From an uncultured Candidatus Saccharibacteria bacterium (GTDB lineage: Bacteria > Patescibacteriota > Doudnabacteria > UBA920), in contig CAYLIB010000003.1 in NCBI GenBank assembly GCA_964384035.1, positions 36,393 to 100,392 of the forward strand: a stretch of 64,000 nucleotides of DNA, given 5' to 3'. Positions 36,886-58,202 of the stretch are shown here, one piece after another. Each line of letters starts with the position of its first letter. The stretch's first letter is position 1. A program made the position numbers and the translations under genes. A model generated the notes under the pieces. That model was not told where the DNA came from, did not search any database, and saw only the letters and a program-made list of their open reading frames with translations.

Positions 36886-36912
36886 AAGGACCTGTTACCA
36901 GGTCCATTTTTT
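36886..36912. terminator. bidirectional terminator (ggacctg-ttac-caggtcc, A-run / T-run)
   Basis: Serves the convergent genes ending at 36884 (+) and 36912 (-). Confidence 0.65.
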
Positions 36913-41403: not shown

Positions 41404-41450
41404 AATAAATTCAAAATTTAAAATTCAAAAATCAAAGTTAAAATTTAAAA

Positions 41451-41819
41451 CTATTTATTCTTTAACTTCAGGCCACTACTACCTAGCATTTTTAATATTT
41501 CTATTGCTTCTGATGTTAGGGGTTTAATTATTTCTATTTTACCAAGTTTGGAGTGATTTAGTAAATCTAACCAATATATGATTTCGTTTGCGCTCTTTAG
41601 AGATATTTCGTAATACCTTTTAAACTCAAACCTTGAACTAGAAGCTCGACCTTCGGTAAGATTTGCCCCTACCGAACGCGCAGACCTCAGTAACTGATCC
41701 ATAATTATCCAAGCTGCTCGTTTATTTGGAAGAGTATCAGCTAACTTAATTATTTCTAGACTGAATTTGAAACATCTACTTGGTAGATCAGTTTTGAATT
41801 TAGAATTTAAATTTTGCAT
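41451..41819 (-). CDS. four-helix-bundle protein (TIGR02436-type, often encoded in 23S rRNA intervening sequences)
   Basis: 122 aa. LLRSARSVGANLTEGRASSSRFEF ... SLKSANEIIYWLDLL matches the family pattern. Confidence 0.65.
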   Translation of the reverse strand: MQNLNSKFKTDLPSRCFKFSLEIIKLADTLPNKRAAWIIMDQLLRSARSVGANLTEGRASSSRFEFKRYYEISLKSANEIIYWLDLLNHSKLGKIEIIKPLTSEAIEILKMLGSSGLKLKNK

Positions 41820-41820
41820 T

Positions 41821-42984
41821 CTAACTTCTAAATTTTGAGTTTTCTTGTGACATTTGCCAGCTGGTGGCGATTATATTTTCTAGGGTGGAGTGTTCTGGGC
41901 GGAATTTTAACTCTTTTTGGATTCGGCTAGTGTCGGCTACAGTTATAGGTGCGTCCCCTGGTCTTCTTGGGCCAACCTCTGTTGGAATCATCCGACCGGT
42001 TATTTCTGCGGCGGACTGAATAACTTCCTCTACGCTGAAACCTTTGCTTGTACCTATGTTGTAAACCCGGAAACCACTCTCCCCTGTCTCAAGACTCACA
42101 ACATGGGCTTTGGCTACGTCGAGTACGTGAATGAAGTCTCTTATGCAGGAGCCGTCAAATGTTGGATAATCTTTTCCGAAAACAGTTAGGACCGGGGTTT
42201 TCCCGAGAGCTACATCTAGAACGATTGGTATAAGGTGAGAGTTTTTGTGTGTGTCAGTTACGTTATATTTTGGCTCACACCCGGCTACGTTGAAGTACCT
42301 TAGAATGGTTACGTCGAAACCAAAATTTTTCGCAAAGTACTGAAGCATTTTTTCGGCGATCATTTTGCTTTCACCGTAAGGGTTGTTTGGTACAAGCGGT
42401 GTATCTTCTGAAATAGGTACTATTTGCTGTTCTCCGTAGACTGCGGCGGTAGATGAAAAAATAATTTTCTTTATACCGGCTGTTTCCATAGCTTGAAGTA
42501 AGACATAGGTAGCATGGGCATTGTTTTCTAGATACTCTAGCGGTTTTCTAACAGACTCTTCGACTTCGAGGAGAGCTGCTAAATGAATAACTGCGTCTAT
42601 TTGGTTTTCGGCGAGAAGCTGAGTTAGCAGTTCAAGATTGCTTACATTTCCGGTGACCAATTTTACACCATCCGGAATGTGTTCTTTTCTACCGGTCCTG
42701 AAGTCGTCGAGCACTATTGGGGTGTAGCCTTTTTCTACTAACAAATGTACGAGGTGTCCCCCTATGTAACCGGCACCGCCTGTTACCAAAATATTTTTTA
42801 TATTATTTTCTTTACTCATTGTATTTGTAGTCAAAATTTTCATATTCTTTCCTGCAAGTTCATTATACCTGTCCAGACTTAAAACTACTGCTTCGGGTTG
42901 GCCATCTAGCGAAAGCACGAGCCCACCACTTCTTTTCTTTATTTCTTTTAATAACTCCAAAAGATACTGATCGTTTTGCGGCAT
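41821..42984 (-). CDS. NAD-dependent sugar epimerase (UDP-glucose 4-epimerase GalE-like) with a ~45-aa Phd/YefM-like N-terminal extension
   Basis: 387 aa. Rossmann motif ILVTGGAGYIGGHLV and the YxxxK region. The N-terminal segment LVLSLDGQPEAVVLSLDRYNEL resembles Phd/YefM antitoxins and is in the same frame with no stop. Confidence 0.7.
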   Translation of the reverse strand: MPQNDQYLLELLKEIKKRSGGLVLSLDGQPEAVVLSLDRYNELAGKNMKILTTNTMSKENNIKNILVTGGAGYIGGHLVHLLVEKGYTPIVLDDFRTGRKEHIPDGVKLVTGNVSNLELLTQLLAENQIDAVIHLAALLEVEESVRKPLEYLENNAHATYVLLQAMETAGIKKIIFSSTAAVYGEQQIVPISEDTPLVPNNPYGESKMIAEKMLQYFAKNFGFDVTILRYFNVAGCEPKYNVTDTHKNSHLIPIVLDVALGKTPVLTVFGKDYPTFDGSCIRDFIHVLDVAKAHVVSLETGESGFRVYNIGTSKGFSVEEVIQSAAEITGRMIPTEVGPRRPGDAPITVADTSRIQKELKFRPEHSTLENIIATSWQMSQENSKFRS

Positions 42985-43081
42985 ATTTTGAAAATTAAAA
43001 ACAACAGCTCTAAAAAAGTTATTGTGCTGTTGTTTTGTGTTGGTATTTTTATTCTTAATTTGATAGTAGCAGGAAATAAAA

Positions 43082-43119
43082 AGACTAGCAAAACGCGTAC
43101 GTACGCGATTTACTAGTCT
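43082..43119. repeat. near-palindromic 38-mer agactagcaaaacgcgtacgtacgcgatttactagtct
   Basis: Outer arms agactag/ctagtct. The core acgcgtacgtacgcg is built of MluI-like (ACGCGT) and BsiWI-like (CGTACG) hexamers, and an SpeI-like ACTAGT hexamer is also present. It overlaps the stop codon of the 43113..44162 gene. Confidence 0.5.
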
Positions 43120-44162
43120 GGATTGACCAAGTGGATACCAAGCACCCGATTATCGTCCGAAACCTTCACAAGCGTGAGCTTTGTAGCGCCTTTTCGCTTA
43201 TAACTCATGAATTTCCCGCGACGAAATTCTCTGATCCGCTGCCACCTATTTCCGACTACCATCCCAAAGACGGCTTCGGGTACTCTAATTTCAAGCGTCT
43301 TACCCTTCAGCTTAGGGACGAGGTAAATCCAGGTACTTGATTGAGTCCCAGGAAAAACACCATGGAATTCATAGTCGTTTGGAAGAACGTCATTCGGTAG
43401 GCCATCCTTACCTATATGAACTACCACGTCCGTGTCCTTGAGCCACAGGTCAACATTGGCTTTTAGTTCCTGTTTGGCTTGAAACGCAGCAACTTCAGCT
43501 TGCTTAATCTCTTCTTCGGCCAAGACTTTCTTACACCCAGCTTCAGTAATCTGAAAGTCAGGGCAAATGCGAACTTCGACTGTAGAGAGATAGGTGTATT
43601 TGGGTGTATAACCCGTATACCGATCCACATCCCCCTCAACCTGGTAAGCATTCACGTACTCGAAGAAGAGCTGAAGTTCGATCTTTCCATCTGGGGCTTC
43701 CTCCCACTCGTCTATTATCCGTGTCTCTGCGAGTCGTTCGGCAGCCGCCCTGTGAACATCGTCATCAGGCCACAAAATCTCAGCCTGATTGGGAACAACC
43801 CTCATGCCAGGCAATGCCTCCAATTTCGGTTGAGTCGCAAACCAAACGGTTCCAACTCCTTTACTTCCAAGCCAAACATATTCCCCTGCATACATGTACG
43901 CAAGATGAGTAAGCTTGAAAGTGTTTCCGGTCTCCGGCAAAATCTGAACCATTTCTGGCTCAATCTGCCAGATTGCGGCGAGGAGCTGGACAGCTTCGAG
44001 GCCATTTTTGACCTCCCGCCAGACTTCCTTAAATCCAGCAAAGGGCAAGTCTTCTTGCCAACGGTTAAGTTTTGTGCCCTGAGGAACCTTCATGGAAAGC
44101 CGAAACTTTCCGGAAGAAACCTCAAACAAGGCGCTTCTGTTACTGCTGCTAAATTTCAGCAT
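43113..44162 (-). CDS. hypothetical cytoplasmic protein (GC-rich island gene)
   Basis: 349-aa ORF, ~50% GC. RBS agaggg. No recognisable domain. Confidence 0.55.
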   Translation of the reverse strand: MLKFSSSNRSALFEVSSGKFRLSMKVPQGTKLNRWQEDLPFAGFKEVWREVKNGLEAVQLLAAIWQIEPEMVQILPETGNTFKLTHLAYMYAGEYVWLGSKGVGTVWFATQPKLEALPGMRVVPNQAEILWPDDDVHRAAAERLAETRIIDEWEEAPDGKIELQLFFEYVNAYQVEGDVDRYTGYTPKYTYLSTVEVRICPDFQITEAGCKKVLAEEEIKQAEVAAFQAKQELKANVDLWLKDTDVVVHIGKDGLPNDVLPNDYEFHGVFPGTQSSTWIYLVPKLKGKTLEIRVPEAVFGMVVGNRWQRIREFRRGKFMSYKRKGATKLTLVKVSDDNRVLGIHLVNPD

Positions 44163-44294
44163 GATTTTCCCTCTTTCGTAGTTTTATTTGAAGTGCTAAT
44201 AAGGTTATTTACCCGGCATCAGGACTCCAAATCCTCTGACTAAAGATGCCCAGAACCCGTAAGGGCCTGGGCATCTTTTCTACTAAACTTTTTT

Positions 44295-47066
44295 CTAGGC
44301 GAAGATAAGTTTGAAGATTGCTTTTCTCTTTAAGTACATGGCGAAGCCAAGAGTACTTATTCCGCCGAATGCGATTGCATTGGTTTCACCACCTGTTTTT
44401 GGTATTACTACTGGAGGAACAGGAGCGGGGGTCTGAATTTGGACAGTTACTGTGTTTCCGTAGGTGTTTACCATTGTGAAGTTTAGGTTAGCTGCAAGGG
44501 AGTATTTTACTCTGACCTTGAAGCTCTTTGTGACTGAACCATTTGCTGGCACGTTTACACTTGGGAAAGTTATAACGTTGTTAGAAATTGTTCCACCACC
44601 GTTATCTACCATATCAGCGAATGTTAGAACACTTGATAGATCGTCGGTAATAACGAAGTTATTAGCTACCTGAGAACCAGTGTTATTTACAGTAAGTGTA
44701 TAGGTTATAAAGTCTTCTCTGGATGCTGGGGTTGTAGTAGCGTCTACATTCTTAGTGTCGTTCCAAGCTTTTTTACTTAGTACTAAGTTAGACTGACCAA
44801 CTAGAGTAGAGTTTACAGTTGCGGTGTCATGTACCTGAGATACAGAATCACCTGTTACAACAGCGGTGTTGGTTAAGTTATAACTACCAGTTCCGCTAAT
44901 GCTTACAGTACCGTCTATATAGACTTTCTTTTGCTGGCCGGTTGCCAAGGTACCCATAGAGATTTGGAATCCGTTGGTTGCACTTGCGGTGAAGTCGCCG
45001 TTTACAGAGATTGGGCTGAAGCCTAGGGCTCCACTCCAGTTATCGGTGAGTCTGACGTTAGATACTTCTCTTGAACCTGGGTTAGAAACAGTTATTTCGA
45101 ACTGAACTCTGTCGCCGTTGTTGGCTGAGACACTCTTTTGGAAAGAAGTTCCTTGAGTTACGTTCTTTACATTCTTTATAACTGCTAACTGAGGAGTACC
45201 AACTACTTGGTTAACTATTACAGTAGCAGTATCTTGTACGTCTGTTACGTTGTCGCCTTTTGCAACTGCTGTGTTTACAAGTTGAGTTTGAGCAACATTT
45301 GCAGGAGCAACAGCTTTTGCTTGGAAAGTTACAGTTTTGCTTTGACCGTTGTTTAGGTTACCTATAGATATAGTGCTTACGTTATCACCAGAGTTTGTAC
45401 CGTCTATTTTTAGAGTACCTGTTTGGTACTGAATTCCAGAAGGAAGTGAATCGGTAAGGGTGATGTTCTTAATGTTACCAGAGTTTACACCAACAACGAT
45501 TTTATATTCTACGATTTCGTTGTTTTGTACCGAAACACTGTCTTGGAAAGAACCAGATAAGGTTCTTACTTGTTTAGTTATTGTTAGATTGCCTTTAGAA
45601 GGAACAGCGACGTTAACTACTGCTTGAGACTGAACAGTTGACGCATTGCTGGATGTTGCTACAGCAGTGTTGGTAACTGTTATGGAATCTTTTGCTACGT
45701 TTGCTGTGTAAGTTATTACAACAGAAGAATTGGTATTAATATCACCTAGGCCCAAACCGTTCGCTAGGGAGCCAGTGTAAGAGCGGTCTACATTTATAGT
45801 ACCGGTAGGATTTATACCAGTGTTGCTTAGGGAGTCAGTTACGAATACGCTCTTAGCAGTTGTGGAACCAGTATTAGCTACAGTTATTCTGTACTGCATT
45901 TGGTCACCGTTTTCAGCGTCTGCAGATTTAGCGAAGGAAGTATTTTTAGTTACGTTTCTGACTTCTTTGTTTATGGTAATAGTAGTGTTCTGTTGCTGAG
46001 GGGTGTTTACAGTTACGTTTGCAGAATCTTGAACTTGGTTTGCACCGTCACCTTTTGCAGTTGCTGTATTTGTAACTGTAGAACCTGCGCTTGCTGTAAC
46101 TTTTGCCTGGTATTTAATTTCTACACCAGATTGGTTAACAGCTCCGAGGTTTACGCCACTAGAAAGAGTACCGGTTTTTGCTTGACCGTTAACCATAAGA
46201 CTGTTGTTTACATAAGATAACTGAGAGTTTAGAGCGTCTGTAATTACTACATTATTTACTGGAGTTGCATCGGTAGCAGCAATTTTAACTCTATATTCAA
46301 CAGTGTCGTTTTGGTAAGAAGTTTCGTTGTTTACGAAAGCAGTTCTGTTTGCAGTTACGTTTCTGACTTCTTTAGTAATACTTAGTTGACCTTGAGCAAC
46401 TGGAGTTGCTGGGACTACCTTAACTCTGAAGCGGTAAAAACGGCTGTATTGGAAACATGCGTTAAGGTCGCCGATAGATAGGATATTGTTACCCATATTG
46501 AAACCGGCTTCTTGGATGTTACCGTTGTTATCATATCTTTCACCACTGTTTGGAACTACTTCGAGTTTTTCGTTTGCACCAGTTGTAATTTTGTAGAACT
46601 GGTTAACACCTGGGGTGTTAGGAGAAGTAGCACGAACTTCTATTTGGTGAGTTGTACCTACGTTGGTGTCTACTATGGTAGTAATGTGCACGTCTTTTGC
46701 AACAGTTTGAGACTGTGGCAAGTTTTGCGCAGCACCATTGTGAATGTAGACAGTTCCGAAGATTTCGTCCCCTGCAGTAGCAGTTACACCAGCTTGCATT
46801 TCTTGCAAGTTGGTTGGGTAGCTACCACCGTTAACTTTTCTCATTTGAATAAGAGGAAAGTCTTTACATTCGATGGTAGAAGCATCGAAGGTAAGTGGGT
46901 AGATATTGAACTGAGCTGTAGTTGGTGCGTTTGCACAATTTTCAGCTTTAGCCACGTCTATTGAGCGTGGAGCTATTATACCAACCAAAGAAGCAGCGGT
47001 TACCATAAGGGCAACTGCGCCGTAACCTAGTTTGGTGGCAAATGTTCTTTGCATTAATTGCAACAT
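44295..47066 (-). CDS. cell-wall-anchored surface protein with DUF11 repeat domains and an IPKTG sortase sorting signal
   Basis: 923 aa. Signal peptide. Many conserved-repeat-domain (DUF11/TIGR01451-like) segments (ITKEVRNVT ... VTDSL ...). C-terminus IPKTG, then a hydrophobic stretch (AIAFGGISTLGFAMYL), then KRKA. Confidence 0.8.
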   Translation of the reverse strand: MLQLMQRTFATKLGYGAVALMVTAASLVGIIAPRSIDVAKAENCANAPTTAQFNIYPLTFDASTIECKDFPLIQMRKVNGGSYPTNLQEMQAGVTATAGDEIFGTVYIHNGAAQNLPQSQTVAKDVHITTIVDTNVGTTHQIEVRATSPNTPGVNQFYKITTGANEKLEVVPNSGERYDNNGNIQEAGFNMGNNILSIGDLNACFQYSRFYRFRVKVVPATPVAQGQLSITKEVRNVTANRTAFVNNETSYQNDTVEYRVKIAATDATPVNNVVITDALNSQLSYVNNSLMVNGQAKTGTLSSGVNLGAVNQSGVEIKYQAKVTASAGSTVTNTATAKGDGANQVQDSANVTVNTPQQQNTTITINKEVRNVTKNTSFAKSADAENGDQMQYRITVANTGSTTAKSVFVTDSLSNTGINPTGTINVDRSYTGSLANGLGLGDINTNSSVVITYTANVAKDSITVTNTAVATSSNASTVQSQAVVNVAVPSKGNLTITKQVRTLSGSFQDSVSVQNNEIVEYKIVVGVNSGNIKNITLTDSLPSGIQYQTGTLKIDGTNSGDNVSTISIGNLNNGQSKTVTFQAKAVAPANVAQTQLVNTAVAKGDNVTDVQDTATVIVNQVVGTPQLAVIKNVKNVTQGTSFQKSVSANNGDRVQFEITVSNPGSREVSNVRLTDNWSGALGFSPISVNGDFTASATNGFQISMGTLATGQQKKVYIDGTVSISGTGSYNLTNTAVVTGDSVSQVHDTATVNSTLVGQSNLVLSKKAWNDTKNVDATTTPASREDFITYTLTVNNTGSQVANNFVITDDLSSVLTFADMVDNGGGTISNNVITFPSVNVPANGSVTKSFKVRVKYSLAANLNFTMVNTYGNTVTVQIQTPAPVPPVVIPKTGGETNAIAFGGISTLGFAMYLKRKAIFKLIFA

Positions 47067-47141
47067 TGTTTGTTCCTTTGCGAAATGTCTTATTTAAGGA
47101 CATTTCAGTTAATCTATAAAATAACCAACAAAATACCCATA

Positions 47142-47170
47142 ATTATACATGAAAACGACCCAAAAGTCAA
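47142..47170 (-). promoter_or_regulatory. sigma70-like promoter TTGACT-17-TATAAT for the DUF11 surface-protein gene
   Basis: Consensus hexamers on the minus strand, ~75 nt upstream of the ATG at 47066. RBS aaaggaac. Confidence 0.6.
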
Positions 47171-47393
47171 GACTAAAACCCGCTTAAATTGAAAATATTA
47201 AATGGCTTGTTTAAGAGATAAAAATCACATGATCTGAAACATTGAAGATTTTGTTTCAGTTTGGATGATTTTTTGTATTTTTTTATGGAGCCGTACGTAG
47301 CAGGGTACGGTGGAGTAAAAAAATGCAAAAAATCGCACAAAATGGAGCAAAATATGCAATGCCGTGATGAGAAAAATAAAACTAAAGAAACAA

Positions 47394-47436
47394 GCGCAGT
47401 CAGAGTGGGATATTGAGTCCCACGGCTGAGCTGCGC
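47394..47436 (-). terminator. terminator of the GC-rich two-gene operon (nested hairpin, T-rich tail on minus strand)
   Basis: Outer stem gcgcagtcag/ctga(g)ctgcgc and inner stem gtggga/tcccac. In minus sense it is followed by ttgtttctttagttttattttt. Confidence 0.55.
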
Positions 47437-47460
47437 TTGAAATGCTGACATGAAGCGAAT

Positions 47461-48687
47461 TTAGGGCCGGCGAACCGGGACGGTTGTCGTGCTGCCACCG
47501 GTTGTCGGGTTAATGGGCGGAGTACCGCCGATGGTTCGACCGATTGGCAGATCGCCGTTTGTCGTACCGCTACCGAGTGGTGACTCGATAGTTCGTATGC
47601 CATCGCGTGGTGCGATTGGCCCACGAACAGGATCGCCGTTGGGAACGGTACGGACACCACCGGATGTGGAGTCTTTCATAGGGACTTGCGGTTTGTCGGG
47701 TCGGCTTGGGATGCCGTACCGACCGATGACTGTTCCGACAGGAACGCCAACCGCGAAGCCGACCCAGAATTCCTTCCAGTGCCAGCCATCCCAGACGATC
47801 TCGACACGGATGTCTTTGCCGGGTTCACAGAACGAGTCCTCGACGTGAGTGAAAGTGACTTTAGACTCCAACATCTTTTGGAAGTTTTTTTCGTCATCCT
47901 TGCTTTTGACGAACCTCTTCTGGATGTCTTCGTCTTTTTTCATTTCCTCCCAGATTGCCCGAATGTAACTTTCAGGCAAACGGTCACTCGCCACCAACAC
48001 TTCGCCCAACTTGAAGGATTTGGATTTCCCGCTTCTTGTTGGCCCAACTAGGTCATTGCGACCCCCTTCGCAAATCGTCTTCGTTGCAGTCTTATGGATT
48101 TCCACTCGACCGCAACCGAAGTCCTTGGTCACGATTTTGTTACCATCTCTGTCAGTGGCTTCTGTGACTTTGGGTTCGTCAAACGGTTTGCATGGAGGAG
48201 GTGTTGGGCATGGTGTCGCGGAGGGAGTCGGAGCGGGTTTTTCGTCCCACTTGATGGCCTCCATGTGGAAGAACCGATTTGCGCAACGCACGATCCGCAC
48301 GATCTTCATAGTGGCCATGTGCATGATCACCAGAGTCGCCGGCTGTTCCGGGCCTTCGGGGGTCAACTTGACCATATCCACGAGAGGCAACTTACCGTAG
48401 ACCCAGTTACCTCGTTTATCTTCGGAGTAACCAAGTACGGTGGGTTTGGTGATTGCGACACAGGCGAAGCCTGCGGGAAGCTCTTTCGAGCCGTCGCAAT
48501 AACCGTAAATTCCGCCTTCGATTGTCGGGAACGATCCGACGGGAATGAACCCGCCGTTCAAGTCCCGGAACGATTTCGGAGCTTTGTCGAGTGGTGTGAA
48601 GTCAACATTTGAGGTCTGCGCCAAAGCGCCGACGACCGAGAGAGTGACCAGAAGGGTTGCGACATAGAGAATTCGATTGAGTTTCAT
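47461..48687 (-). CDS. hypothetical secreted protein, Cys- and Pro/Gly/Thr-rich (GC-rich island gene)
   Basis: 408 aa, ~58-60% GC. Signal peptide (LLVTLSVVGALAQT). RBS aaaggag. C-terminal PTPSATPCPTPPPC and GT-rich low-complexity tail. No sorting signal. Confidence 0.6.
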   Translation of the reverse strand: MKLNRILYVATLLVTLSVVGALAQTSNVDFTPLDKAPKSFRDLNGGFIPVGSFPTIEGGIYGYCDGSKELPAGFACVAITKPTVLGYSEDKRGNWVYGKLPLVDMVKLTPEGPEQPATLVIMHMATMKIVRIVRCANRFFHMEAIKWDEKPAPTPSATPCPTPPPCKPFDEPKVTEATDRDGNKIVTKDFGCGRVEIHKTATKTICEGGRNDLVGPTRSGKSKSFKLGEVLVASDRLPESYIRAIWEEMKKDEDIQKRFVKSKDDEKNFQKMLESKVTFTHVEDSFCEPGKDIRVEIVWDGWHWKEFWVGFAVGVPVGTVIGRYGIPSRPDKPQVPMKDSTSGGVRTVPNGDPVRGPIAPRDGIRTIESPLGSGTTNGDLPIGRTIGGTPPINPTTGGSTTTVPVRRP

Positions 48688-48705
48688 TCGGTGTAATCTC
48701 CTTTG

Positions 48706-49407
48706 CTAGTTGGAATTCGGTGTTTTGATGAGATTGATGGCGCTTTGGACGGCGCCGAGTCTCATCATTTTGTCGTAGTTCAGGACTGGGAGCCATTTCC
48801 CAGCCGACTCGTCGTAAATGTAGGACGAATTGTCGGCAAGGTAGGTCATACCCATGAACTCGACATAATACCCCTGCAAGCCCTTTCCCGGGACCAAGAC
48901 TGTGACTTTCGCCACCACTCGGCTAATCCGGTACCACTTGCTGTTTAGAAAACGGAAAGCGGCAGCTTCGCCGTTGAGAAGTATGTCAGTCGTGCGGTCT
49001 TCCACACGACGACCGAGTATGACTCCACCAACTGCGCCACCGTAACGACCAATGCGCCCAAGTCGGCCAAGCTCGATAATCATCGCATCGATTGCGATAT
49101 TGCCGAGGCCTTGGTTTTCGTAGGCGCGAGACTGGGTTTTACGGCGTATGCGCTCTGCTTCAATCATGTCTTCTTGTGTCGGCTGATTGATTTTCAGCAC
49201 GACCGATTCCCATTCGATCTGCAAGCACTTGGGTGTGAACCCAAGCTTGTTAGTCGGATTGTTGAAGAGGTTTTTGGCCTCTTGAATATCCGACTGCTCC
49301 AAAATTGAGGTGGGTTCGCTACAGGATAGGCCTTTGCTTGCTTCCTGTCCGAAAGAAGTGATTGAGAGAGCTAAGATGATGGCAACGATTATATAAATTC
49401 GCTTCAT
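48706..49407 (-). CDS. hypothetical secreted protein (GC-rich island gene)
   Basis: The ORF track starts at 49461. The internal ATG at 49407 (MKRIYIIVAIILALS...), preceded by ggagga, is the more plausible start and gives a signal peptide. ~52% GC. It sits 18 nt upstream of the next gene, so likely an operon. Confidence 0.55.
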   Translation of the reverse strand: MKRIYIIVAIILALSITSFGQEASKGLSCSEPTSILEQSDIQEAKNLFNNPTNKLGFTPKCLQIEWESVVLKINQPTQEDMIEAERIRRKTQSRAYENQGLGNIAIDAMIIELGRLGRIGRYGGAVGGVILGRRVEDRTTDILLNGEAAAFRFLNSKWYRISRVVAKVTVLVPGKGLQGYYVEFMGMTYLADNSSYIYDESAGKWLPVLNYDKMMRLGAVQSAINLIKTPNSN

Positions 49408-49569
49408 TGAATTGTTCCTCCGTATTGAGTTTTGTAGGTGCGATGCTTTTGCCTGGCACACTTCTATGCGCGTTGCATAGAAGTTTTAGGCTTACGCTTG
49501 GGTGCCAAGCGAATTGCTCCACAAACTGCTAGATAACCAACATTCCGTAGAGCAAACCGCTTATCACTT

Positions 49570-49600
49570 TCTCGGGAGCCGGCTTGACCAGCTCCCGAGA
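49570..49600. terminator. GC-rich hairpin (tctcgggagc-11 nt-gctcccgaga) downstream of the sortase gene
   Basis: 10-bp perfect stem directly after the sortase stop. The T-tail is weak. Confidence 0.45.
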
Positions 49601-49609
49601 TATTTAGTT

Positions 49610-50968
49610 TTATTGATAGTCTATTTTGTCTAATGTTCCGAATATAACTTTTCTCTTTGCGGTACCGCCTATTGGCCAACAGGTTCCTAGAGCTACAACT
49701 GAGTCTGCGGTGTTCTTGAATTGTTCTGGATCTTGGGGTGTGTACTCTCCCCTTCTGTTAACTATGTAAGTTAGCTTAACGAGTTTTCCTTGTTTGGTGG
49801 TTACATAAACGTAGAAGGAAGCTTTGTCTGGTACGTCGTTTAAACGGGAAAAGATGGTTTTAAATTTACTGTCGTCCCAAGCGTAACCACTGCTGTGTCC
49901 GGAAATGTAGGAAGTACCTAAGGAGCCGGGTTCTGCTGTGCCAGGGACTCGCATTACTCCAAGTTTTAACGCATTGTCGTTTTCGGCGCTGGTCTTTGGC
50001 CACTGGATTGGTGCGGTAACATTTATAGAAGGGATTTCGATTTTACCTGGAATGTTAAAGTCTATGTCGAGATAGTTCTGTGTGGCTGGGATGTTTAACT
50101 TGTTGTACTTCGGTGTTGCGGATTGGTTTGGGTAAGTTCCAGTTAAGTTTGGTTTAACTTCAGGTTTAATAAAAACTATGTTTGGCTTTACGTAGGAGAT
50201 TCCTGAGTTATCTGTTGGAGTTGCAATAGTATTCACAACATCTACCGGTTCTACTGGGTACCCTTCGCCTCGCAAGTAGTAAGGGTTAGTTATAACTATC
50301 TGTTCTTCTACCGGATAAGATTTTTTCTTGTTTACTGCAACATCTACTTCTATGAACTGTTCGATAAGTTTTTTCTGGTCTTCGGTAAGATTGTTACCGT
50401 TGAGCGGGTTAATACCATCCTGAATATATTCACTATCTGCCTTACCGAGTTTTAGAGTGTCGTAGACTTTTGGATTTAAACCAAGAATATATTTTTGAAA
50501 GCTTGTTAAACCGTTACCAGAAAGGTCCGTGTTCGGATCTAGCACACTTTTGTCGCTTATATCGAAGTAGTACCCGCGCATCCATGTCTCAAACCTTATT
50601 TTTTCGGTCTTATAGAGTGTGTCTAAGTTTGCTTGTTTGCTTACGCTTGCTACTTTAGGCTGAGATTTGAAGATGTTGCTGAATGAAAAACTGGAGAAGT
50701 AAAAGAAGTAAACAAATATACCGATAAAGAATACAGCTACGAAAGGAGCCACGTATTTAACTATTCTTCCGATACTGGATGACTGACTTTGGTTATATGA
50801 ACTAATCTCTTCTTCGATTTGTTCTTCTGTTTCTATGCTTTCTGCAGAATCTTCTGAATGTGTAGCATGGGATGTACTTTCGTGTGCATTTTTTGAAAAT
50901 ACATTCAAAATTTCCGGGCTACCCGGTACAATTTCTGGCTTTGTTATTTTGTCGTCTAATTCGTTCAT
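49610..50968 (-). CDS. sortase-family transpeptidase (N-terminal acidic cytoplasmic tail, one TM, extracytoplasmic catalytic domain)
   Basis: 452 aa. His in YISGHSSG. TLxTC-type Cys in VVALGTCWPIGGTAKR, followed by the conserved Arg. Confidence 0.75.
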   Translation of the reverse strand: MNELDDKITKPEIVPGSPEILNVFSKNAHESTSHATHSEDSAESIETEEQIEEEISSYNQSQSSSIGRIVKYVAPFVAVFFIGIFVYFFYFSSFSFSNIFKSQPKVASVSKQANLDTLYKTEKIRFETWMRGYYFDISDKSVLDPNTDLSGNGLTSFQKYILGLNPKVYDTLKLGKADSEYIQDGINPLNGNNLTEDQKKLIEQFIEVDVAVNKKKSYPVEEQIVITNPYYLRGEGYPVEPVDVVNTIATPTDNSGISYVKPNIVFIKPEVKPNLTGTYPNQSATPKYNKLNIPATQNYLDIDFNIPGKIEIPSINVTAPIQWPKTSAENDNALKLGVMRVPGTAEPGSLGTSYISGHSSGYAWDDSKFKTIFSRLNDVPDKASFYVYVTTKQGKLVKLTYIVNRRGEYTPQDPEQFKNTADSVVALGTCWPIGGTAKRKVIFGTLDKIDYQ

Positions 50969-51011
50969 AAATATAGTAAATACCTATATATTCATTAATA
51001 TTTTATCCTTA

Positions 51012-51040
51012 ATATTAGCATATTTTAGGTGTTTTGTCAA
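51012..51040 (-). promoter_or_regulatory. sigma70-like promoter TTGACA-17-TAATAT for the sortase gene
   Basis: Minus strand, ~40 nt upstream of the sortase ATG. Confidence 0.5.
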
Positions 51041-51163
51041 CAATCAGCTAAACCGTTTAACGTTAAATATTACTCCTAAATATGAAAAAATAAAGACCTC
51101 CCACTTTAATAATTAAAAAGAGCTTATTTAAGGATAAAGTAATAAATATGAGCTTAATTATGC

Positions 51164-51192
51164 TTGACTTTATGTGTCTCTTATATTATAAT
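51164..51192 (+). promoter_or_regulatory. sigma70-like promoter TTGACT-17-TATAAT
   Basis: Consensus. An ~80-nt leader with the hairpin ccaggt...acctgg. RBS tggagg before the ATG at 51274. Confidence 0.6.
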
Positions 51193-51273
51193 TAGCTCTT
51201 ATTTTCCCAATCTCAATAAACCAGGTTAACGTAAGTTACCTACCTGGCTAAATTCAACTATGGAGGAATTGAA

Positions 51274-52062
51274 ATGAGTTACAAACGATATAAGGGCTTG
51301 TCGTACAATGATTTGTTCGCTGTCATAATGATGAGAGCGTACTTATCTGATGGACTACTCTCGGATGTCTTGCTCACTGGAATCAAGAGATTCGCTAAGG
51401 AATTTGCGGTTGATCAAGTTGGCCTTCCTCTCAATTTCAATGAAATTGTCAAAAAAGACCTCTTTGACAACCGCCTGGTTGCCACACAGACTGCTCTGGC
51501 GCTTATGAATCGGGAGGAAAGCATAGACTTCGAATCTGCCTGTGCTGGTAAATTCGAGGAGCTGATTCAGGAGGCTCTAAGAAAAGTACCTGCAGACGAG
51601 CTAGCAGAGATGGAACCAGCCTTGCGAGCCAGTTTCGATAAGGTCCGTGAGTTGTTGAATATGACGGAAACCGAAATGAAGGCGCTCGGAGTTGATCCGC
51701 TGGATGAAGCCGAGCGTTGGGTAACGACAGTAAAAGGTATTGCCTCGGAAAACGAACAACACCCAGCGTCTGTTGCGTTCAACGACGGCGCACTCAAGGC
51801 TATTGTGACTAAGGCCTACACCAAGGAACAGTTGAGAGATTTGCTAACTGCAATGGTCAAAGTGACCTGTAGCGCAAAATATCTGGTTCAGCTTTGCGTT
51901 ATGCCGACCCTTACTCTGCTCGCAAAAGCCAAAGATAAAACTGACGAAGAAATTGCAAGATACCAAGGAGCTTTCGTTGAGAAAGCTGCGGATCTCAGTC
52001 AGGAAATTCTGGTAACCGCCTTGGGTCAAACCTCACTCATCGTGGATAAGATTTTTGAATAA
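51274..52062 (+). CDS. hypothetical cytoplasmic all-alpha protein (GC-rich island gene)
   Basis: 262-aa ORF, ~47-50% GC. Own promoter and terminator. No recognisable domain. Confidence 0.6.
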   Translation: MSYKRYKGLSYNDLFAVIMMRAYLSDGLLSDVLLTGIKRFAKEFAVDQVGLPLNFNEIVKKDLFDNRLVATQTALALMNREESIDFESACAGKFEELIQEALRKVPADELAEMEPALRASFDKVRELLNMTETEMKALGVDPLDEAERWVTTVKGIASENEQHPASVAFNDGALKAIVTKAYTKEQLRDLLTAMVKVTCSAKYLVQLCVMPTLTLLAKAKDKTDEEIARYQGAFVEKAADLSQEILVTALGQTSLIVDKIFE

Positions 52063-52100
52063 AACGCAAAATTTGCGTTTATTTTTTTTGTTTTTTTCTA
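52061..52100. terminator. bidirectional terminator (acgcaaa/tttgcgt + long T-run)
   Basis: Overlaps the stop codons of both the 51274..52062 gene and the convergent rmlA-like gene. Confidence 0.65.
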
Positions 52101-52801
52101 GCTAATTCAGTGGCGGCAAATAGGGATTCGAAGGTGCCGGCATCTATCCATTCCCCGGTAATTTTAGAGGCGGAAAGTTCTCCTTTTTCCAGATACCATC
52201 TGTTTAAGTCTGTAACTTCAAGTTCACCCCTTGCGGATGGTTTTTGGCCTTTAACAGCTTCTATTACTTTGCTGTCGTAAATGTACAAACCTGTTTGAGC
52301 AAGATTCGATTTGGGGTTAGTAGGTTTTTCTTCTACGCTAAGAACTTTTCCGTTTTCATCTATTTCAACTATACCCAACCTTGTTCTGTCCTCTTCTGGC
52401 ACTTCTCTGACAAATATTTTAGCTCCTGTTGTGAAGTTTTGAATTTCTTCCGAAAGATCATCTTCGAAAATGTTGTCTCCTAGTATTAGGGTTACGTTGT
52501 CGCCGTCGTCCAGAAAATCTTCTCCGATTAAAAAGGCTTGGGCGATACCTTCGGGTTTGTCTTGAATTTCGTAGGTGAATTTTGCTCCGAATTCTTTACC
52601 ACTCCCAAGTAGGCGTAAAAAATCTCCAGCTCTTTCTGGAGCTACTATTATTAAGATATCTTTAATACCAGCTTTTAGCAGAACTTCAAGCGGGTAGAAG
52701 ATCATTGGTTTGTTGTATACAGGTAGAAGTTGTTTGCTTGTTACGTGGGTAAGAGGCTTAAGCCTAGTCCCGCTTCCCCCCGCTAAAATAATTCCTTTCA
52801 T
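52079..52801 (-). CDS. rmlA: sugar-phosphate nucleotidyltransferase (glucose-1-phosphate thymidylyltransferase RmlA-like, short form)
   Basis: 240 aa. MKGIILAGGSGTRLKPLT G-loop. Last gene of the rmlBCD-A cluster. Confidence 0.75.
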   Translation of the reverse strand: MKGIILAGGSGTRLKPLTHVTSKQLLPVYNKPMIFYPLEVLLKAGIKDILIIVAPERAGDFLRLLGSGKEFGAKFTYEIQDKPEGIAQAFLIGEDFLDDGDNVTLILGDNIFEDDLSEEIQNFTTGAKIFVREVPEEDRTRLGIVEIDENGKVLSVEEKPTNPKSNLAQTGLYIYDSKVIEAVKGQKPSARGELEVTDLNRWYLEKGELSASKITGEWIDAGTFESLFAATELARKKQKK

Positions 52802-53640
52802 ATAAGATCTAGGTATTCTGCTAGAGCAACTTTCCAGTGCCTTAGCTTAGGTAGTTTATTGTTTGTTAATATTGCTCTCGAAGGTCTTTTTGCTAATCTC
52901 TTGAATTCTGCAGATTTGGCTGGATTAACTTTTAAACTAGTATTACCCGTCAGTTTTAAAATTTCCCGAGCGAACTCTAACCATGAAGCTTGCCCTTCGT
53001 TTATAACATGGTATATGCCGTAGGGCAAATTGTTCTCTAAAATGTGAATTATGGATTTTGCTAAATCTGGAGCATAAGTAATGCTATTTATTTCGTCGTC
53101 TACAAAACTACACTCGTTTCCTTTTTCTGCCAAACCCAAAACTATATCTACAAAACTTTTCTTCGAGAGTTCGCTTTCACCTTTTGGACCGAAAACAACA
53201 TTTGTTCTTATTACATAAAATCTCCCCCCCTGTTCGATAACCTGATTTTCTCCTGCTAGCTTGCTTTTACCGTAAATTGAAAGTGGATTTGGTACGGAGT
53301 CTTCATTATAAGAATCGGCTAAACCGTCGAATACGTAACCTGTACTTATATGAACGAGTGGTACCCTGCAAGCATTACTAAGCAATGCGAGTTGTTTTGG
53401 TACGTCTCTATTTAACAGGTATGCTTTTTCTTCATTTGTTTCAGCTCCGTCTACATCGTTAAAGGCGACACAGTTTATGACTGCGGAAATTTTACCATTT
53501 AACTCGCCGAATTTAGCATGGATGTTCGGGAAGTTGGTTACGTCTAAGTCTTCCCTGTCCCAATGAAGATCCTGAGGCCTGAGTTTTCTTAGAGCACCCC
53601 CAACTAGACCTTTTGCTCCGATAACTAGAAATTTATTCAT
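52798..53640 (-). CDS. rmlD: dTDP-4-dehydrorhamnose reductase
   Basis: 280 aa. N-terminal Rossmann MNKFLVIGAKGLVGGAL and RmlD-like length and context. Confidence 0.8.
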   Translation of the reverse strand: MNKFLVIGAKGLVGGALRKLRPQDLHWDREDLDVTNFPNIHAKFGELNGKISAVINCVAFNDVDGAETNEEKAYLLNRDVPKQLALLSNACRVPLVHISTGYVFDGLADSYNEDSVPNPLSIYGKSKLAGENQVIEQGGRFYVIRTNVVFGPKGESELSKKSFVDIVLGLAEKGNECSFVDDEINSITYAPDLAKSIIHILENNLPYGIYHVINEGQASWLEFAREILKLTGNTSLKVNPAKSAEFKRLAKRPSRAILTNNKLPKLRHWKVALAEYLDLI

Positions 53641-54179
53641 TATTTAAAAGCTTCAATTTCATTTAAGTTTGGTAGGGCGGAATCTTTTTCAGAAAGTACA
53701 ACTTTGGCTTTGTCTATTGGCCAAGAAATATTTAATGAAGGATCGTAAGGGTTTACACCAATATATTTTTGATCTTTTTTCCAGTGTCCATTTACAGCGT
53801 ATACATAATACGTGTCGGGTAAGGTTGTTTGATAACTATTGCCAATACCTTGAGGAATAAAAACTGAAATCCCAGGTTTTAAATCTATTGTTTCAAAGTG
53901 ACCAAAAGTATTACCCTCACGCAAATCCAGATACACTCCGACTGCATTACCAGTTATAACGCTAACGTACTTATCCCAAGGTTCAGCATGAATACCTCTT
54001 AGTACTCCAGCTTTTGTGTTTTTTACAAAGTTAATCTGTTTTGGAAGGAAAGCTTCGCTAAAACTAAGACTAACTAACTTCTCTTGCTGAAACATTTCCC
54101 AAAACTCCCCTCTTTCATCTGGGTATGTGTCGCTTTCTATTATTAACAATCCGGGTATTTTGGTTTCGGTTAATTTCAT
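53640..54179 (-). CDS. rmlC: dTDP-4-dehydrorhamnose 3,5-epimerase
   Basis: 179-aa cupin. RGEFWEMF ... GLHAEPWDKYVSVITG pattern. Confidence 0.8.
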   Translation of the reverse strand: MKLTETKIPGLLIIESDTYPDERGEFWEMFQQEKLVSLSFSEAFLPKQINFVKNTKAGVLRGIHAEPWDKYVSVITGNAVGVYLDLREGNTFGHFETIDLKPGISVFIPQGIGNSYQTTLPDTYYVYAVNGHWKKDQKYIGVNPYDPSLNISWPIDKAKVVLSEKDSALPNLNEIEAFK

Positions 54180-55180
54180 TACTTTACCAGTCGTTTTGAA
54201 TTATAAAATTCTTCTATTTCCTGAAACTGAGATTCCCACCAAGCAGTATTATTTTTAAACCAATCTACCATTTCGACTAGAGTTGTTTTAAGGTTTCGTT
54301 TTGGGGTCCAGCCTAGTTCGTTTGTTATTTTACTATGGTCGAGTGCATATTTTAAGTCGTGCCCTGGTCGATCTGGAACTAACTCTATTCTATCTAAAGA
54401 CAAATTCATTACTTCTAGCAGCATCTTTACCACGGCTAAATTAGATAACTCTTCGTTATCTGGTGCTATAAAATAGGTCTCACCTATCTTACCTTTGCTA
54501 ATAATTAGGTCGATAGCTTCGCAGTGATCTAACACATGCAGCCATTCTCTTACTTGGTTACCGGGAGTATATACTGGTACATTTTGACCAGATAACAACC
54601 TGCAGATAGCCCTTGGTATTAACCTTTCTGGAGCCATGTAAGGCCCAATATTATTTGCGCAGTTACTAATAGTGACTGGTAAGTTGAAACTATGATAATA
54701 AGCCCTTACCAGGTGATCGCTTGCGGCTTTGGTTGCTGAGTAAGGACTTCTCGGGTCGTAGGGAGATTTCTCGTTCCATTTTTCTTTAGATTCCAGGGGT
54801 AGGTGTCCCAGAACTTCGTCTGTTGAGACATGATGGAAGCGGGTATTATTTTTTCTCGCAGCTTCAAGTAAATTAAATGTTCCAACGACATTTGAAAAAA
54901 CGAAATCTGAGGGGTTAGAAAGAGATCTATCTACCATTGCCTCTGCAGCAAAATGGACAATTAAATCCTGACCTTCCACGGCTTGTTCAGCATATTCTTT
55001 TACTGCGATATCTTTCTGTAGAAAAGTAACTTTAGAGTCTACACCCGCTAGATTATCTTTTCTTCCGGTACTAGTAAGTTTGTCTATAATTGTAATTTCG
55101 TCTTCTGGATGGGTACTTAACCAGTATCTTACAAAATTACTGCCAATAAAACCGGCTCCGCCGGTAACTAATATCTTCAT
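54179..55180 (-). CDS. rmlB: dTDP-glucose 4,6-dehydratase
   Basis: 333 aa. MKILVTGGAGFIGSNFVRYWL and the YSATKAASD catalytic YxxxK. Confidence 0.88.
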   Translation of the reverse strand: MKILVTGGAGFIGSNFVRYWLSTHPEDEITIIDKLTSTGRKDNLAGVDSKVTFLQKDIAVKEYAEQAVEGQDLIVHFAAEAMVDRSLSNPSDFVFSNVVGTFNLLEAARKNNTRFHHVSTDEVLGHLPLESKEKWNEKSPYDPRSPYSATKAASDHLVRAYYHSFNLPVTISNCANNIGPYMAPERLIPRAICRLLSGQNVPVYTPGNQVREWLHVLDHCEAIDLIISKGKIGETYFIAPDNEELSNLAVVKMLLEVMNLSLDRIELVPDRPGHDLKYALDHSKITNELGWTPKRNLKTTLVEMVDWFKNNTAWWESQFQEIEEFYNSKRLVK

Positions 55181-57223: not shown

Positions 57224-58189
57224 ATGAAATCTCGTTTTCAGATCGTTTTTTCGGTCGCCTTTTTGGCGATCTTTGCATTCAATTCCCTGGCACTGGCCCA
57301 GCGCAAGGCACCAGCGCCTTCAGCGGCTCCGCCCAAACCGGTCGAAGCACGCAAGCCGACGGTTATCAACTTGCCACCTCCGCCACCACAGAAACCCGCA
57401 CCGACGCCGGCGCCAGTGGTTCAAGAACGCAAGCCGACGGTTATCAACTTGCCACAGGCTACGCCGGCGCCAGTTGTGAAAGCGACTGCGACCCCTCCGC
57501 CTGTGCAATATGGTAACCAGGCAGTGAAAGCGACCCCAACTCCCGCGGCTCCCGTGGCCACACCAAGTGTGCAGTACGGAAACCAAGCGGCGAAACCTTC
57601 GCCAACTATGCAAGCCACTCAGCAAAATGCGACTGGCGTGCAGTACGGTAACAAGCAAGCGACGGTAATTCCTTTGGCGAAGCTGAGTCCGACTGAACTG
57701 GCGAAGCGTGAAGCGCAGGCCAAACAGTCTGGCAAGTACTTTGCAGACCGGAACTCGGCCATCGCGGCGATAAAGGCAAAAGAACCGATTCAGACGACTT
57801 TTGCCACGGAACCCGCCGAGCGACCTTACTGGGCGCCGGAGCAAGATGACCGTGGACGGCAGGTAGTGTTCAGCAACGGACGATATCGTTCTTACGATGG
57901 AAGTCGTTATTACGATTATGATCCGTATGCTGATAGCTATGGCCAATCACGAATCTTCAACCACGGTGGTTACTATGCTCCGGGGGTCGTGTACTATAAT
58001 GACCCGACACCTGGTTACAACTATGCGAATCAACCCGCTGTGGCTTATCCGCAACAGCCGACACAACCGGGGCAGCGGATGGGATTCTTTGGCGCATTCG
58101 CAACGGTCGCAGTGTTCGCAATGATCCTGGCAGCCGCCTGCTTCATTGCTTACTTGTATTTCCGAAGCAAACGTCGTACCAATCCATAA
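57224..58189 (+). CDS. type-I membrane protein with Pro-rich tandem repeats and a Tyr/Gly-rich region (GC-rich island gene)
   Basis: 321 aa, ~58% GC. Signal peptide, then RKPTVINLP and VQYGN(Q/K) repeat units, then YYDYDPYADSYGQ, then a C-terminal TM (FFGAFATVAVFAMILAAACFIAYLYF) with an RSKRR tail. Confidence 0.6.
   Translation: MKSRFQIVFSVAFLAIFAFNSLALAQRKAPAPSAAPPKPVEARKPTVINLPPPPPQKPAPTPAPVVQERKPTVINLPQATPAPVVKATATPPPVQYGNQAVKATPTPAAPVATPSVQYGNQAAKPSPTMQATQQNATGVQYGNKQATVIPLAKLSPTELAKREAQAKQSGKYFADRNSAIAAIKAKEPIQTTFATEPAERPYWAPEQDDRGRQVVFSNGRYRSYDGSRYYDYDPYADSYGQSRIFNHGGYYAPGVVYYNDPTPGYNYANQPAVAYPQQPTQPGQRMGFFGAFATVAVFAMILAAACFIAYLYFRSKRRTNP
57346..57455 (+). repeat. in-frame tandem repeat (~78-bp period) inside the 57224 gene
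   Basis: cgcaagccgacggttatcaacttgccac occurs at ~57350 and ~57428. Confidence 0.6.
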
Positions 58190-58202
58190 CAAGGAGAAAA
58201 CC

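Follow-up and report, generated by a model that had tools for sequence, protein, structure and literature searches.

DUF11 (CLIPPER) is a CnaA-like, isopeptide-bonded stalk domain of fibrillar adhesins, and some DUF11 domains are without the isopeptide bond (PMC12617251). Of the sorting motifs relevant here, IPKTG is known from pilins of group B streptococci (PMC6314413), and the SrtB enzyme of C. difficile cuts SPKTG between T and G (PMC4155245). The present work concerns a sortase locus of four genes in a 64-kb stretch of DNA from an uncultured Candidatus Saccharibacteria bacterium (Doudnabacteria); the whole stretch is referred to as the window. The gene positions just after the sortase, here called the slot, are occupied in this locus by two GC-rich genes, g1 and g2, which are followed by a DUF11 adhesin. 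The locus is probably a vertically inherited cell-surface module of Patescibacteria, which comprises the sortase, an RNA hairpin, the fast-evolving GC-rich slot genes and the CLIPPER adhesin. Most attention on attachment in Patescibacteria has gone to type IV pili; to our knowledge, host attachment and recognition are largely unknown in these bacteria, and we know of almost no cis-regulatory RNAs in the phylum.

Organisation and conservation of the locus

According to the open reading frame (ORF) listing, the four genes are co-oriented on the minus strand in the order sortase (49610–50968), g1 (48706–49407), g2 (47461–48687) and DUF11 adhesin (44295–47066). All sequence features described in a first-pass annotation of this DNA were recovered at these positions and at those given below. 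The same annotation had taken g1–g2 for a foreign operon that was acquired into an existing sortase–substrate pair; this reading had to be given up, since the slot is occupied down to 42 % sortase identity, has homologous occupants and is linked to the sortase at least as often as the DUF11 gene is (47/62 versus 37/62 loci).

The window was compared with a sister strain (L002–L004 and L009; L numbers denote related loci), the sortase of which is 95 % identical, and with the more distant loci L006, L007 and L008 (sortase 56–58 % identical) and L091 (42 %). The sister strain has the identical four-gene order, and L006, L007, L008 and L091 read rmlBCDA, sortase, two unannotated genes, a CLIPPER protein of 790–930 amino acids (aa) and usually galE. 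The two-gene cassette was found in the same position in every relative examined (L002, L006, L007, L008 and L091), that is, over sortase identities from 95 % down to 42 %. Its occupants are related by sequence: g2 of the window and of L006 are 34 % identical over 228 aa (E=6e-23), the same comparison of g1 gave E=7e-4, positional homologues of g1 are present in L002, L006, L007 and L008, and profiles made from the window pair recognise the middle genes of the relatives. By using an iterated g2 profile, 18 proteins were collected from 18 loci; all 18 are slot genes after this sortase, and none was found elsewhere among 1,032 genes. The similarity of g2 proteins tracks that of the sortases (rho = 0.46, p = 2e-7).

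A scan for the sortase with one genome per species returned 80 loci. Linkage was counted in the 62 loci whose sequence extends 5 kb or more downstream of the sortase; one or more slot genes were found in 47 of these, a DUF11 protein within four genes in 37 and both in 23. Two arrangements were distinguished. Type A consists of the sortase, none to two slot genes, a large DUF11 protein, galE, a GT2 glycosyltransferase and an S8 gene, and type B of the sortase, two slot genes, GT2, S8, an S8-like protein and a 12-helix membrane protein.

Synonymous divergence (dS) between the window (41821–55180) and L002 is 0.14 for rmlC, 0.19 for the adhesin, 0.27 for the sortase, 0.52 for g2, 1.0 for S8 and 2.4 for g1, and is saturated for galE. 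Because dS varies so strongly, the envelope cluster is regarded as a mosaic with frequent recombination with diverged alleles along its length. The ratio of nonsynonymous to synonymous divergence (dN/dS) between the window and the sister strain is 0.085 for g1 and 0.11 for g2; with values of about 0.1, both are real genes under purifying selection, and the possibility that they are a non-coding artefact of stop-poor GC-rich sequence was rejected on the same grounds. The slot genes are old residents of the locus and diverge much faster than their neighbours under purifying selection.

Base composition of the slot genes

The atypical composition of the two middle genes, to which the first-pass annotation had drawn attention, is real. 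Their GC content is 0.50–0.54 and their third-position GC content (GC3) is 0.60 (g1) and 0.61 (g2), compared with a GC3 of 0.33–0.38 for the sortase and adhesin and a window background of about 0.30. Third positions of core genes in the window contain 0.06–0.10 G, and those of g1 and g2 contain 0.23 G and 0.37 C. The middle genes are likewise GC-enriched versus their own flanks in each of L002, L006, L007, L008 and L091. Over 84 Patescibacteria loci, the median GC3 offset was +0.10 for slot genes and 0.00 for other genes (Mann–Whitney p = 1.3e-28), and offsets above +0.10 were found for 51 % of slot genes versus 4 % of others. The offset of the slot genes is greatest in AT-rich genomes, where it reaches +0.43. 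Genes with homologues in at least 11 loci never exceed +0.10 (0/709), compared with 20–40 % of lineage-restricted genes. In L076 and L085, which have sortases that are 89 % identical and a slot protein that is 76 % identical, slot GC3 is about 0.7 in genomes at 0.28; in L068 (sortase 54 % identical) the slot gene has diverged beyond recognition and has a GC3 of 0.75. The GC-rich state of the slot persists across deep divergence.

A recent acquisition of g1–g2 as a foreign operon between an existing sortase and its substrate is highly improbable in view of these data. Such an origin would fit the GC3 of 0.60 versus about 0.33 in the flanks, the terminator that the pair has of its own, the missing family annotation and the presence of a genuine GC-rich insertion next door; however, the slot is filled in all relatives down to 42 % sortase identity, its occupants are homologous, and the GC offset scales with the background of each genome. 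Furthermore, no donor homologues outside the lineage were found for g1–g2 in searches of 5.8 billion and 1.84 billion proteins, no tRNA genes were found in the 64-kb window, and neither gene matched phage or defence families (PHROGs, PADLOC). The neighbouring insertion, x262 (51274–52062, plus strand; 262 aa), is located between rmlA and the sortase, is GC-rich and is 86 % identical in the sister strain. It is not present in L006, L007 and L008 and is therefore, unlike g1–g2, a real lineage-specific insertion.

Alternatively, the slot could be a recombination hot spot in which alleles are replaced by exchange from a Patescibacteria pool of differing and, on average, higher GC content. Several observations agree with this: dS is 2.4 for g1 versus 0.2–0.5 in its neighbours; the second slot genes of L047 and L069 are 94 % identical, with sortases at 86 % and first slot genes at 51 %; the g2 similarity of L054 and L074 is above that of their sortases; d1, the gene downstream of the adhesin, was replaced in the sister strain; the regression of slot GC3 on that of the background has a slope of 0.43, from which a preferred value of about 0.6 follows for the slot; and horizontal transfer among Patescibacteria is mostly within the phylum (PMC12455944). 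On the other hand, a slot gene is hardly ever poorer in GC than its genome, also where the background GC3 is high (only 8 such cases were available), the GC-rich state is kept across related low-GC species, and g2 divergence tracks the sortase overall; exchange is judged an unlikely account of the slot. The GC enrichment itself may stem from recombination-associated GC-biased gene conversion or from selection on codons, or else from alleles repeatedly taken up from a pool of higher GC content.

Slot proteins

The first slot gene, g1, evolves fast and encodes a protein of 233 aa with a signal peptide and a Gly-rich central segment. Its ATG start at 49407 follows a GGAGG sequence and is the same as in the JGI gene call; an upstream GTG would give 251 aa. 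The second slot gene, g2, encodes a predicted type I membrane protein of 408 aa, in which a signal peptide is followed by a Cys-containing outer domain, a Pro-rich linker, a membrane-proximal motif (CEPG...W-x-GWHWKEF), a Gly-rich membrane helix (near residue 305) and a basic tail of about 90 aa that is rich in Pro and Gly. The description of both products as secreted proteins without sorting signals holds in that both have signal-peptide-like N termini and neither has a C-terminal sorting signal; it does not hold for g2 as a released protein, because g2 is membrane-anchored. Possible roles of the pair as secreted partners, adhesins or effectors had also been put forward in the first-pass annotation.

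No family match was obtained for g1 or g2 in Pfam, NCBIfam, PHROGs or PADLOC. In an indexed search, 5.8 billion proteins yielded only two homologue clusters for g1 and, for g2, only the sister allele and one protein with 58 % identity; an exhaustive HMMER pass with g2 over 1.84 billion representatives gave only five matches at E<1e-3.

A signal-peptide-like N terminus is present in 73/91 slot proteins. Many share a C-terminal anchor made up of a basic, Trp-containing stretch, a Gly/Ala-rich helix, R/K-GGG and a Pro/Gly-rich, net-positive tail; none of the curated C-terminal sorting models matches these anchors. It was considered whether g2-type proteins are non-canonical sorting substrates, with this C-terminal unit as a new sorting signal for the present sortase or another enzyme. 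The recurrence of the tripartite anchor in many otherwise unrelated slot proteins, the linkage to the sortase (47/62) and collagen-like stalks reminiscent of LPXTG-anchored Scl adhesins in some slot proteins could be taken in favour of this idea, which is nevertheless distinctly improbable: P-x-T-G or another conserved cleavable motif before the helix was not found, the tails (18–120 aa) are much longer than known sorting signals and match no curated sorting model, and a plain single-pass membrane anchor explains the architecture equally well.

The collagen-like Gly-X-Y repeats were found just before the membrane helix in slot proteins of L007 (10416–11531), L031 (9387–10121) and L039 (9596–10375), and these proteins weakly match the LPXTG-anchored collagen-like adhesins Scl and Lcl. 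A further member of the g2 family, P0129 (569 aa), has the same membrane-proximal motif (CxxxxW-x-GWHWKEY) followed by a membrane helix. It also contains an inserted DUF11-repeat-like segment, which ties the g2 family to the domain type of the adhesin.

Sortase

The sortase-family transpeptidase (452 aa) matches PF04203 with E=5.5e-16 and 58.9 bits (cut-off 26.6) over residues 310–446. It is composed of an acidic N-terminal tail (residues ca. 1–65), a membrane segment (ca. 66–90), a conserved module with the sequence SGNGLT (148–167), a variable linker and the catalytic domain (ca. 300–450). His358, Cys430 and Arg439 (in SGH358SS, LGTC430WP and AKR439) correspond in alignments to the catalytic residues of two sortases of solved structure, 6ixz and 7d6p, and are invariant among 24 aligned family members; the motif around the catalytic Cys reads (A/L)(L/G)(S/T)TCWP, not TLxTC. 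With the Pfam score above cut-off and the Cys, His and Arg residues aligned to known sortases, the enzyme is a real sortase, as had been proposed.

More than 180 homologues were found, all of full length (ca. 430–530 aa), and those with a named source all belong to Patescibacteria. The suggestion of a lineage-specific sortase family with an acidic N-terminal tail and membrane segment is upheld by these homologues and by scores below every NCBIfam class cut-off: the class C model NF033745, the best of the class models, gave 42.1 bits (cut-off 160), class D NF033746 gave 23.0 bits (165) and class E NF033747 gave 21.3 bits (160). The closest solved structures are class C sortases (7d6p, 6ixz, 8t28 and 2xwg; best profile E value 1e-8). 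Among 76 homologues, the N-terminal tails have a median length of 94 residues and a median net charge of −7, and 95 % are negative. The SGNGLT module (D-x-SGNGLT-x-F-x-KY-x-L-x-LNPK; 50470–50530, minus strand) follows the membrane segment and is invariant in 24/24 aligned sortases; it has no family match in Pfam even at E≤10. Its loose likeness to calcium-binding loops (dockerin/EF-hand) is not put forward as a claim. Between the module and the catalytic domain, the linker of the family is variable and of low complexity.

By inspection of the sequence and the 24-member alignment, no DP(F/W/Y) lid motif was found before the first strand. No C-terminal membrane anchor was seen by inspection either; the protein ends 5 residues past the catalytic domain. 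A metagenome scan with the alignment of the sortase clade gave one distant locus only.

Some of the same genomes contain a second, much shorter type of sortase (ca. 281 aa; L086 1240–1734, L087 1186–1695). The genome that holds L060 also holds L086, and the context of the short sortase differs in that it contains many small membrane proteins.

Adhesin and sorting signal

The DUF11/CLIPPER fibrillar adhesin (923 aa; PF01345 113.5 bits, TIGR01451 89.6 bits) consists of a signal peptide, an N-terminal domain of about 225 aa, five DUF11 repeats, a DUF7927-like domain and a C-terminal cell-wall sorting signal. It is 98 % identical to its counterpart in the sister strain (dN/dS 0.067). The sorting signal (44298–44405, minus strand) comprises IPKTG (residues 888–892), a hydrophobic stretch of 20 residues and KRKAIFKLIFA, so that the protein ends in ...VVIPKTGGETNAIAFGGISTLGFAMYLKRKAIFKLIFA and has the motif, the hydrophobic stretch and the basic tail in this order; the reading as an IPKTG-anchored DUF11 protein is sustained by the presence of the hydrophobic and basic parts on inspection. 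The curated LPXTG-anchor model did not match the adhesin at E≤0.01. The adhesin is the sole protein with such a signal in the 64-kb window. A sigma-70-like promoter of the DUF11 gene, identified by consensus match only, is located at 47142–47170 (minus strand; TTGACT, a spacer of 17 nucleotides (nt) and TATAAT; 11/12 matches).

The linked DUF11 proteins (n=35) have the motifs APKTG (25), SPKTG (2), APTTG (2), APNTG (2), IPKTG (1), TPTTG (1), APQTG (1) and APRTG (1). The layout of motif, hydrophobic stretch and basic tail is common to the 35 members, and the first residue is I, S, T or A, not L. Orthologues of the window adhesin carry SPKTG, TPTTG or TPKTG, the last of these in L091. As the counts favour APKTG, IPKTG is a local variant of an xPKTG consensus; it is a one-lineage variant in a family with the consensus APKTG (25/35) and does not define a sortase class, as had been supposed. 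Motifs of the xPKTG type, like the streptococcal and clostridial ones above, fall inside known sortase specificity.

Assembly of a pilus, in which the sortase would act as a class C-like pilin polymerase to build a fibre from CLIPPER protein units and g1 and g2 would serve as accessory or basal components, is improbable. The nearest structures and the best NCBIfam model are of class C, IPKTG occurs in group B Streptococcus pilins (PMC6314413), and CnaA-like isopeptide domains such as CLIPPER are used in pilins as well as in adhesins. Against this, the class C score is 42.1 bits versus 160, a YPK-type pilin motif was not found in the DUF11 protein, the sortase has, by inspection, neither the DP(F/W/Y) lid nor the C-terminal anchor, g1 and g2 have no sorting signals, and the 64-kb window contains one sorting-signal protein.

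RNA elements

The gap between the sortase and g1 (202 nt) contains three hairpins. The first follows the stop codon of the sortase gene (49570–49600, minus strand); it is a perfect GC-rich stem of 14 bp (−27.5 kcal mol−1, z = −6.95) without a U-tract and corresponds to the upstream hairpin that had been noted as flanking g1–g2. It was found in the window and L002, is missing in L007, and a different hairpin is present instead in L008.

The second is a conserved RNA hairpin of 28 bp (49502–49567, minus strand) with the sequence GUGAUAAGCGG...GGUUAUCUAGC...UUCGCUUGGCAC on the gene-sense strand. Both sequence and structure are kept in L002 (9110–9175), L006 (9491–9556), L007 (9394–9459), L008 (7508–7573) and L090 (7463–7545), although the flanking proteins are 52–58 % identical. 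The RNAalifold consensus is a hairpin of 28 bp with seven compensatory pairs and six G·U pairs. Covariance model R1 gave 86–96 bits for the sense strand and 33–48 bits for the antisense strand; each locus contained a single copy, and the window no further one. The independent lineage L090 gave 64.9 bits. The G·U pairs and the excess of about 50 bits on the sense strand indicate an RNA that is carried by the mRNA strand. Across the six lineages, pairing extends to 97 % of cells (slid controls 35–46 %), 9/28 pairs are changed on both sides, and 0/500 shuffles reached the observed covariation. In type B loci, the same position is taken by a related hairpin, which agrees in its basal stem (GUG.UAG...CUGGCAC) and mid-stem (UGCUC/GAGC). 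With a second model it was recovered in 20 loci (for example, L077 9589–9667 and L034 9255–9333), of which 12 had not been part of the seed; in every one of the 20 it lies on the sense strand, in the gap that separates the sortase from the first slot gene. In an alignment of 17 type B sequences that was restricted to the sense strand, 93.9 % of cells are paired (slid controls ca. 40 %), 14/24 pairs are compensatory and 0/500 shuffles came up to the observed value. These alignments were fitted to the models, and the pairing figures are therefore somewhat inflated. In total, a hairpin between the sortase and the variable genes was found in about 27 species. Rfam gave no match at gathering thresholds over the whole window and only chance-level matches (E>1) in the hairpin region, and a metagenome scan for the hairpin core found nothing.

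Two other identities of the hairpin were rejected by inspection. A sigma-54 −24 element had been considered for its TGGCAC; in none of the lineages is there a TTGC at −12 spacing, and the bases in question take part in stem pairing. An integron attC site is contradicted by the core, which deviates from GTTRRRY, and by the G·U pairs, which indicate RNA.

The third hairpin is small (49460–49484; whole element 49451–49484, minus strand; −21.9 kcal mol−1, z = −3.8), has a conserved CAACGCG loop and is followed by GUGCCAGGC at 49451–49459. This sequence and the 3′ strand of the 28-bp hairpin (GCUUGGCAC, 49502–49510) are complementary. A complement of this type is also present in L002, L007, L008 and L091, and the minimum-energy fold of L008 makes use of it, which suggests that the leader may switch between two structures in the clade of the window. 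Across the type B hairpin family the alternative pairing was not significant, in a test partly confounded by ORF start calls; as it is not general in type B, the pairing is treated as no more than a lead, and one limited to the window's clade.

Downstream of g2, the GC-rich terminator proposed for g1–g2 was verified as a stable stem with a U-tract. The intrinsic terminator (47375–47439, minus strand; stem 47391–47439) is a branched GC-rich stem, CAAGCGCAG...CUGCGCUUG, followed by UUUCUUUAGUUUUAUU (−30.5 kcal mol−1, z = −5.07).

Proposed working of the module

Within the module, which is probably vertically inherited, the sortase would cleave the adhesin between T and G of IPKTG and link it to peptidoglycan precursors; murB, murC-like and murG genes are present in the same window. 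The products of g1 and g2 may be surface-exposed, fast-diversifying partners that are functionally tied to the sortase. In the membrane, g2 would probably be located beside the sortase, where its basic cytoplasmic tail could face the acidic N-terminal tail of the enzyme (median charge of sortase tails −7; slot-protein tails mostly net positive). The hairpin on the mRNA could act as a processing, stability or attenuation element that sets the expression of the slot genes relative to that of the sortase. The GC enrichment may come from a gene-specific process, such as recombination-associated GC-biased gene conversion or codon-usage selection, and not from a recent foreign origin.

Several points weigh against this picture. 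Some g2 and sortase similarities are discordant (for example, L054–L074 and L080–L074), and some replacement or exchange occurs. The DUF11 gene follows the sortase directly, without a slot gene, in 15/62 loci, and slot proteins are therefore not obligatory for anchoring. The dependence of slot GC3 on background GC3 (slope 0.43) would also fit exchange from a shared pool. The dS of galE is saturated without GC enrichment, which means that recombination alone does not predict GC-richness. No promoter was identified for g1–g2. The AlphaFold models of g2 (alignment of seven sequences, pLDDT 36.6, pTM 0.23) and g1 (three sequences, pLDDT 47.4, pTM 0.50) were too poor for a fold search. Finally, the interaction of acidic and basic tails is pure inference, and a basic cytoplasmic tail is expected in any case from the positive-inside rule.

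More broadly, and as a tentative proposal that is possible rather than probable, the hairpin and slot genes could form a variable-surface-protein cassette that is coupled to the sortase across a class of episymbiotic Patescibacteria. Its proteins would be host- or phage-facing and diversified by recombination, the persistent GC3 excess would have been left by GC-biased gene conversion or by a similar gene-specific force, and the leader would control expression relative to the sortase.

Genomic surroundings

The window is a cell-envelope region with murB, a Mur ligase gene, murG, many glycosyltransferase genes, a flippase gene, a gene for an O-antigen-ligase-like protein, rmlABCD, galE and genes for an S8 protease and its paralogue. 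A patatin-like phospholipase gene (7961–8959, minus strand) is located between the Mur ligase gene and murG, inside the peptidoglycan cluster. At 21626–23302 (minus strand), a gene for a protein of 558 aa has weak baseplate J-like matches (Pfam E=3.8e-4, below cut-off; PHROG baseplate wedge E=1.3e-3) and is surrounded by housekeeping genes (pgi-like, alaS, ribosomal proteins).

The S8 subtilase (614 aa; 36912–38771, minus strand) and a secreted protein of 619 aa without a Pfam match (38831–40675, minus strand) have repeated C-terminal segments in common. A pair of this type is found with a GT2 gene directly after the slot genes in type B loci and is a conserved part of the wider module. Between galE and GT2 (ca. 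41450–41750), a gene of 83 aa carries a PF05635 domain (23S rRNA intervening-sequence protein), as does L005 17403–17654; no such gene was called at this position in sister strain L002.

Directly downstream of the adhesin, d1 (43113–44162, minus strand; 349 aa) is GC-rich in the window (GC3 0.50). Its positional homologues in L006 and L007 are 26–27 % identical and not GC-rich, and sister strain L002 has an unrelated gene of 209 aa instead. Together with d1 and x262 (51274–52062, plus strand), seven GC-rich ORFs are present in the window besides g1 and g2, the others being located at 15505–16251, 34670–35722, 35841–36884, 57224–58189 and 58146–58958 (all plus strand). They have GC3 values of 0.43–0.70 versus about 0.30, are mutually unrelated and are mostly transcribed opposite to their neighbours. 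Searches of Pfam, NCBIfam, PHROGs and PADLOC gave no family for them, except for a weak transglycosylase match of 35841–36884.

Comparison with known systems

With housekeeping sortases and their LPXTG adhesins (class A/B/E; C. difficile SrtB with (S/P)PxTG), the locus shares the His-Cys-Arg triad and a substrate that likewise has a signal peptide, Ig-like stalk repeats and a C terminus of motif, hydrophobic stretch and basic tail, with xPKTG in the known range. It differs in the sortase scores far below curated cut-offs, the acidic N-terminal tail of about 65–130 residues, the SGNGLT module, the APKTG consensus and the Patescibacteria host. Class C pilus loci are alike in the best structure and profile matches, the IPKTG motif and the clustering of the sortase with substrate genes; here, however, the lid, the C-terminal anchor and the YPK motif were not found, the score is 42.1 bits versus 160, and g1 and g2 have no sorting signals. 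Known CLIPPER fibrillar adhesins (PMC12617251) are similar in their tandem DUF11 stalk, signal peptide and sorting domain, whereas the adhesin described here has a Patescibacteria host and an xPKTG signal. The sortase–adhesin pair is a member or variant of a well-known kind, and the APKTG-type lineage-specific sortase with its CLIPPER fibrillar adhesin is a candidate attachment apparatus.

Horizontally acquired islands resemble the slot in their atypical GC content and GC3, unannotated proteins and own terminator. In the slot, by contrast, position is conserved, the occupants are homologous and the deviation is persistently towards higher GC; mobility genes, tRNA genes and donor homologues were not found. 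Slot genes keep a fixed position, are diverged beyond recognition between species and have GC-rich codons in AT-rich genomes, which is the opposite of the usual pattern of orphan genes, and they could be a natural test case for GC-biased gene conversion versus selection in bacteria. Atypical composition says little about recent horizontal transfer in these genomes.

The conserved hairpin is comparable to cis-regulatory leaders, attenuators and RNase III-site hairpins as a long, covarying, sense-strand hairpin between co-oriented genes, with a possible alternative pairing; in contrast to these, it has no match in Rfam and no U-tract after the hairpin. This covarying RNA structure is a candidate regulatory element. 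No description of the slot, the sortase architecture or the RNA element was found in the literature open to search, and what is new in comparison with the systems above is a position-keeping, fast-evolving, GC-rich slot, a sortase architecture that is specific to the lineage and an RNA element without a counterpart in Rfam.

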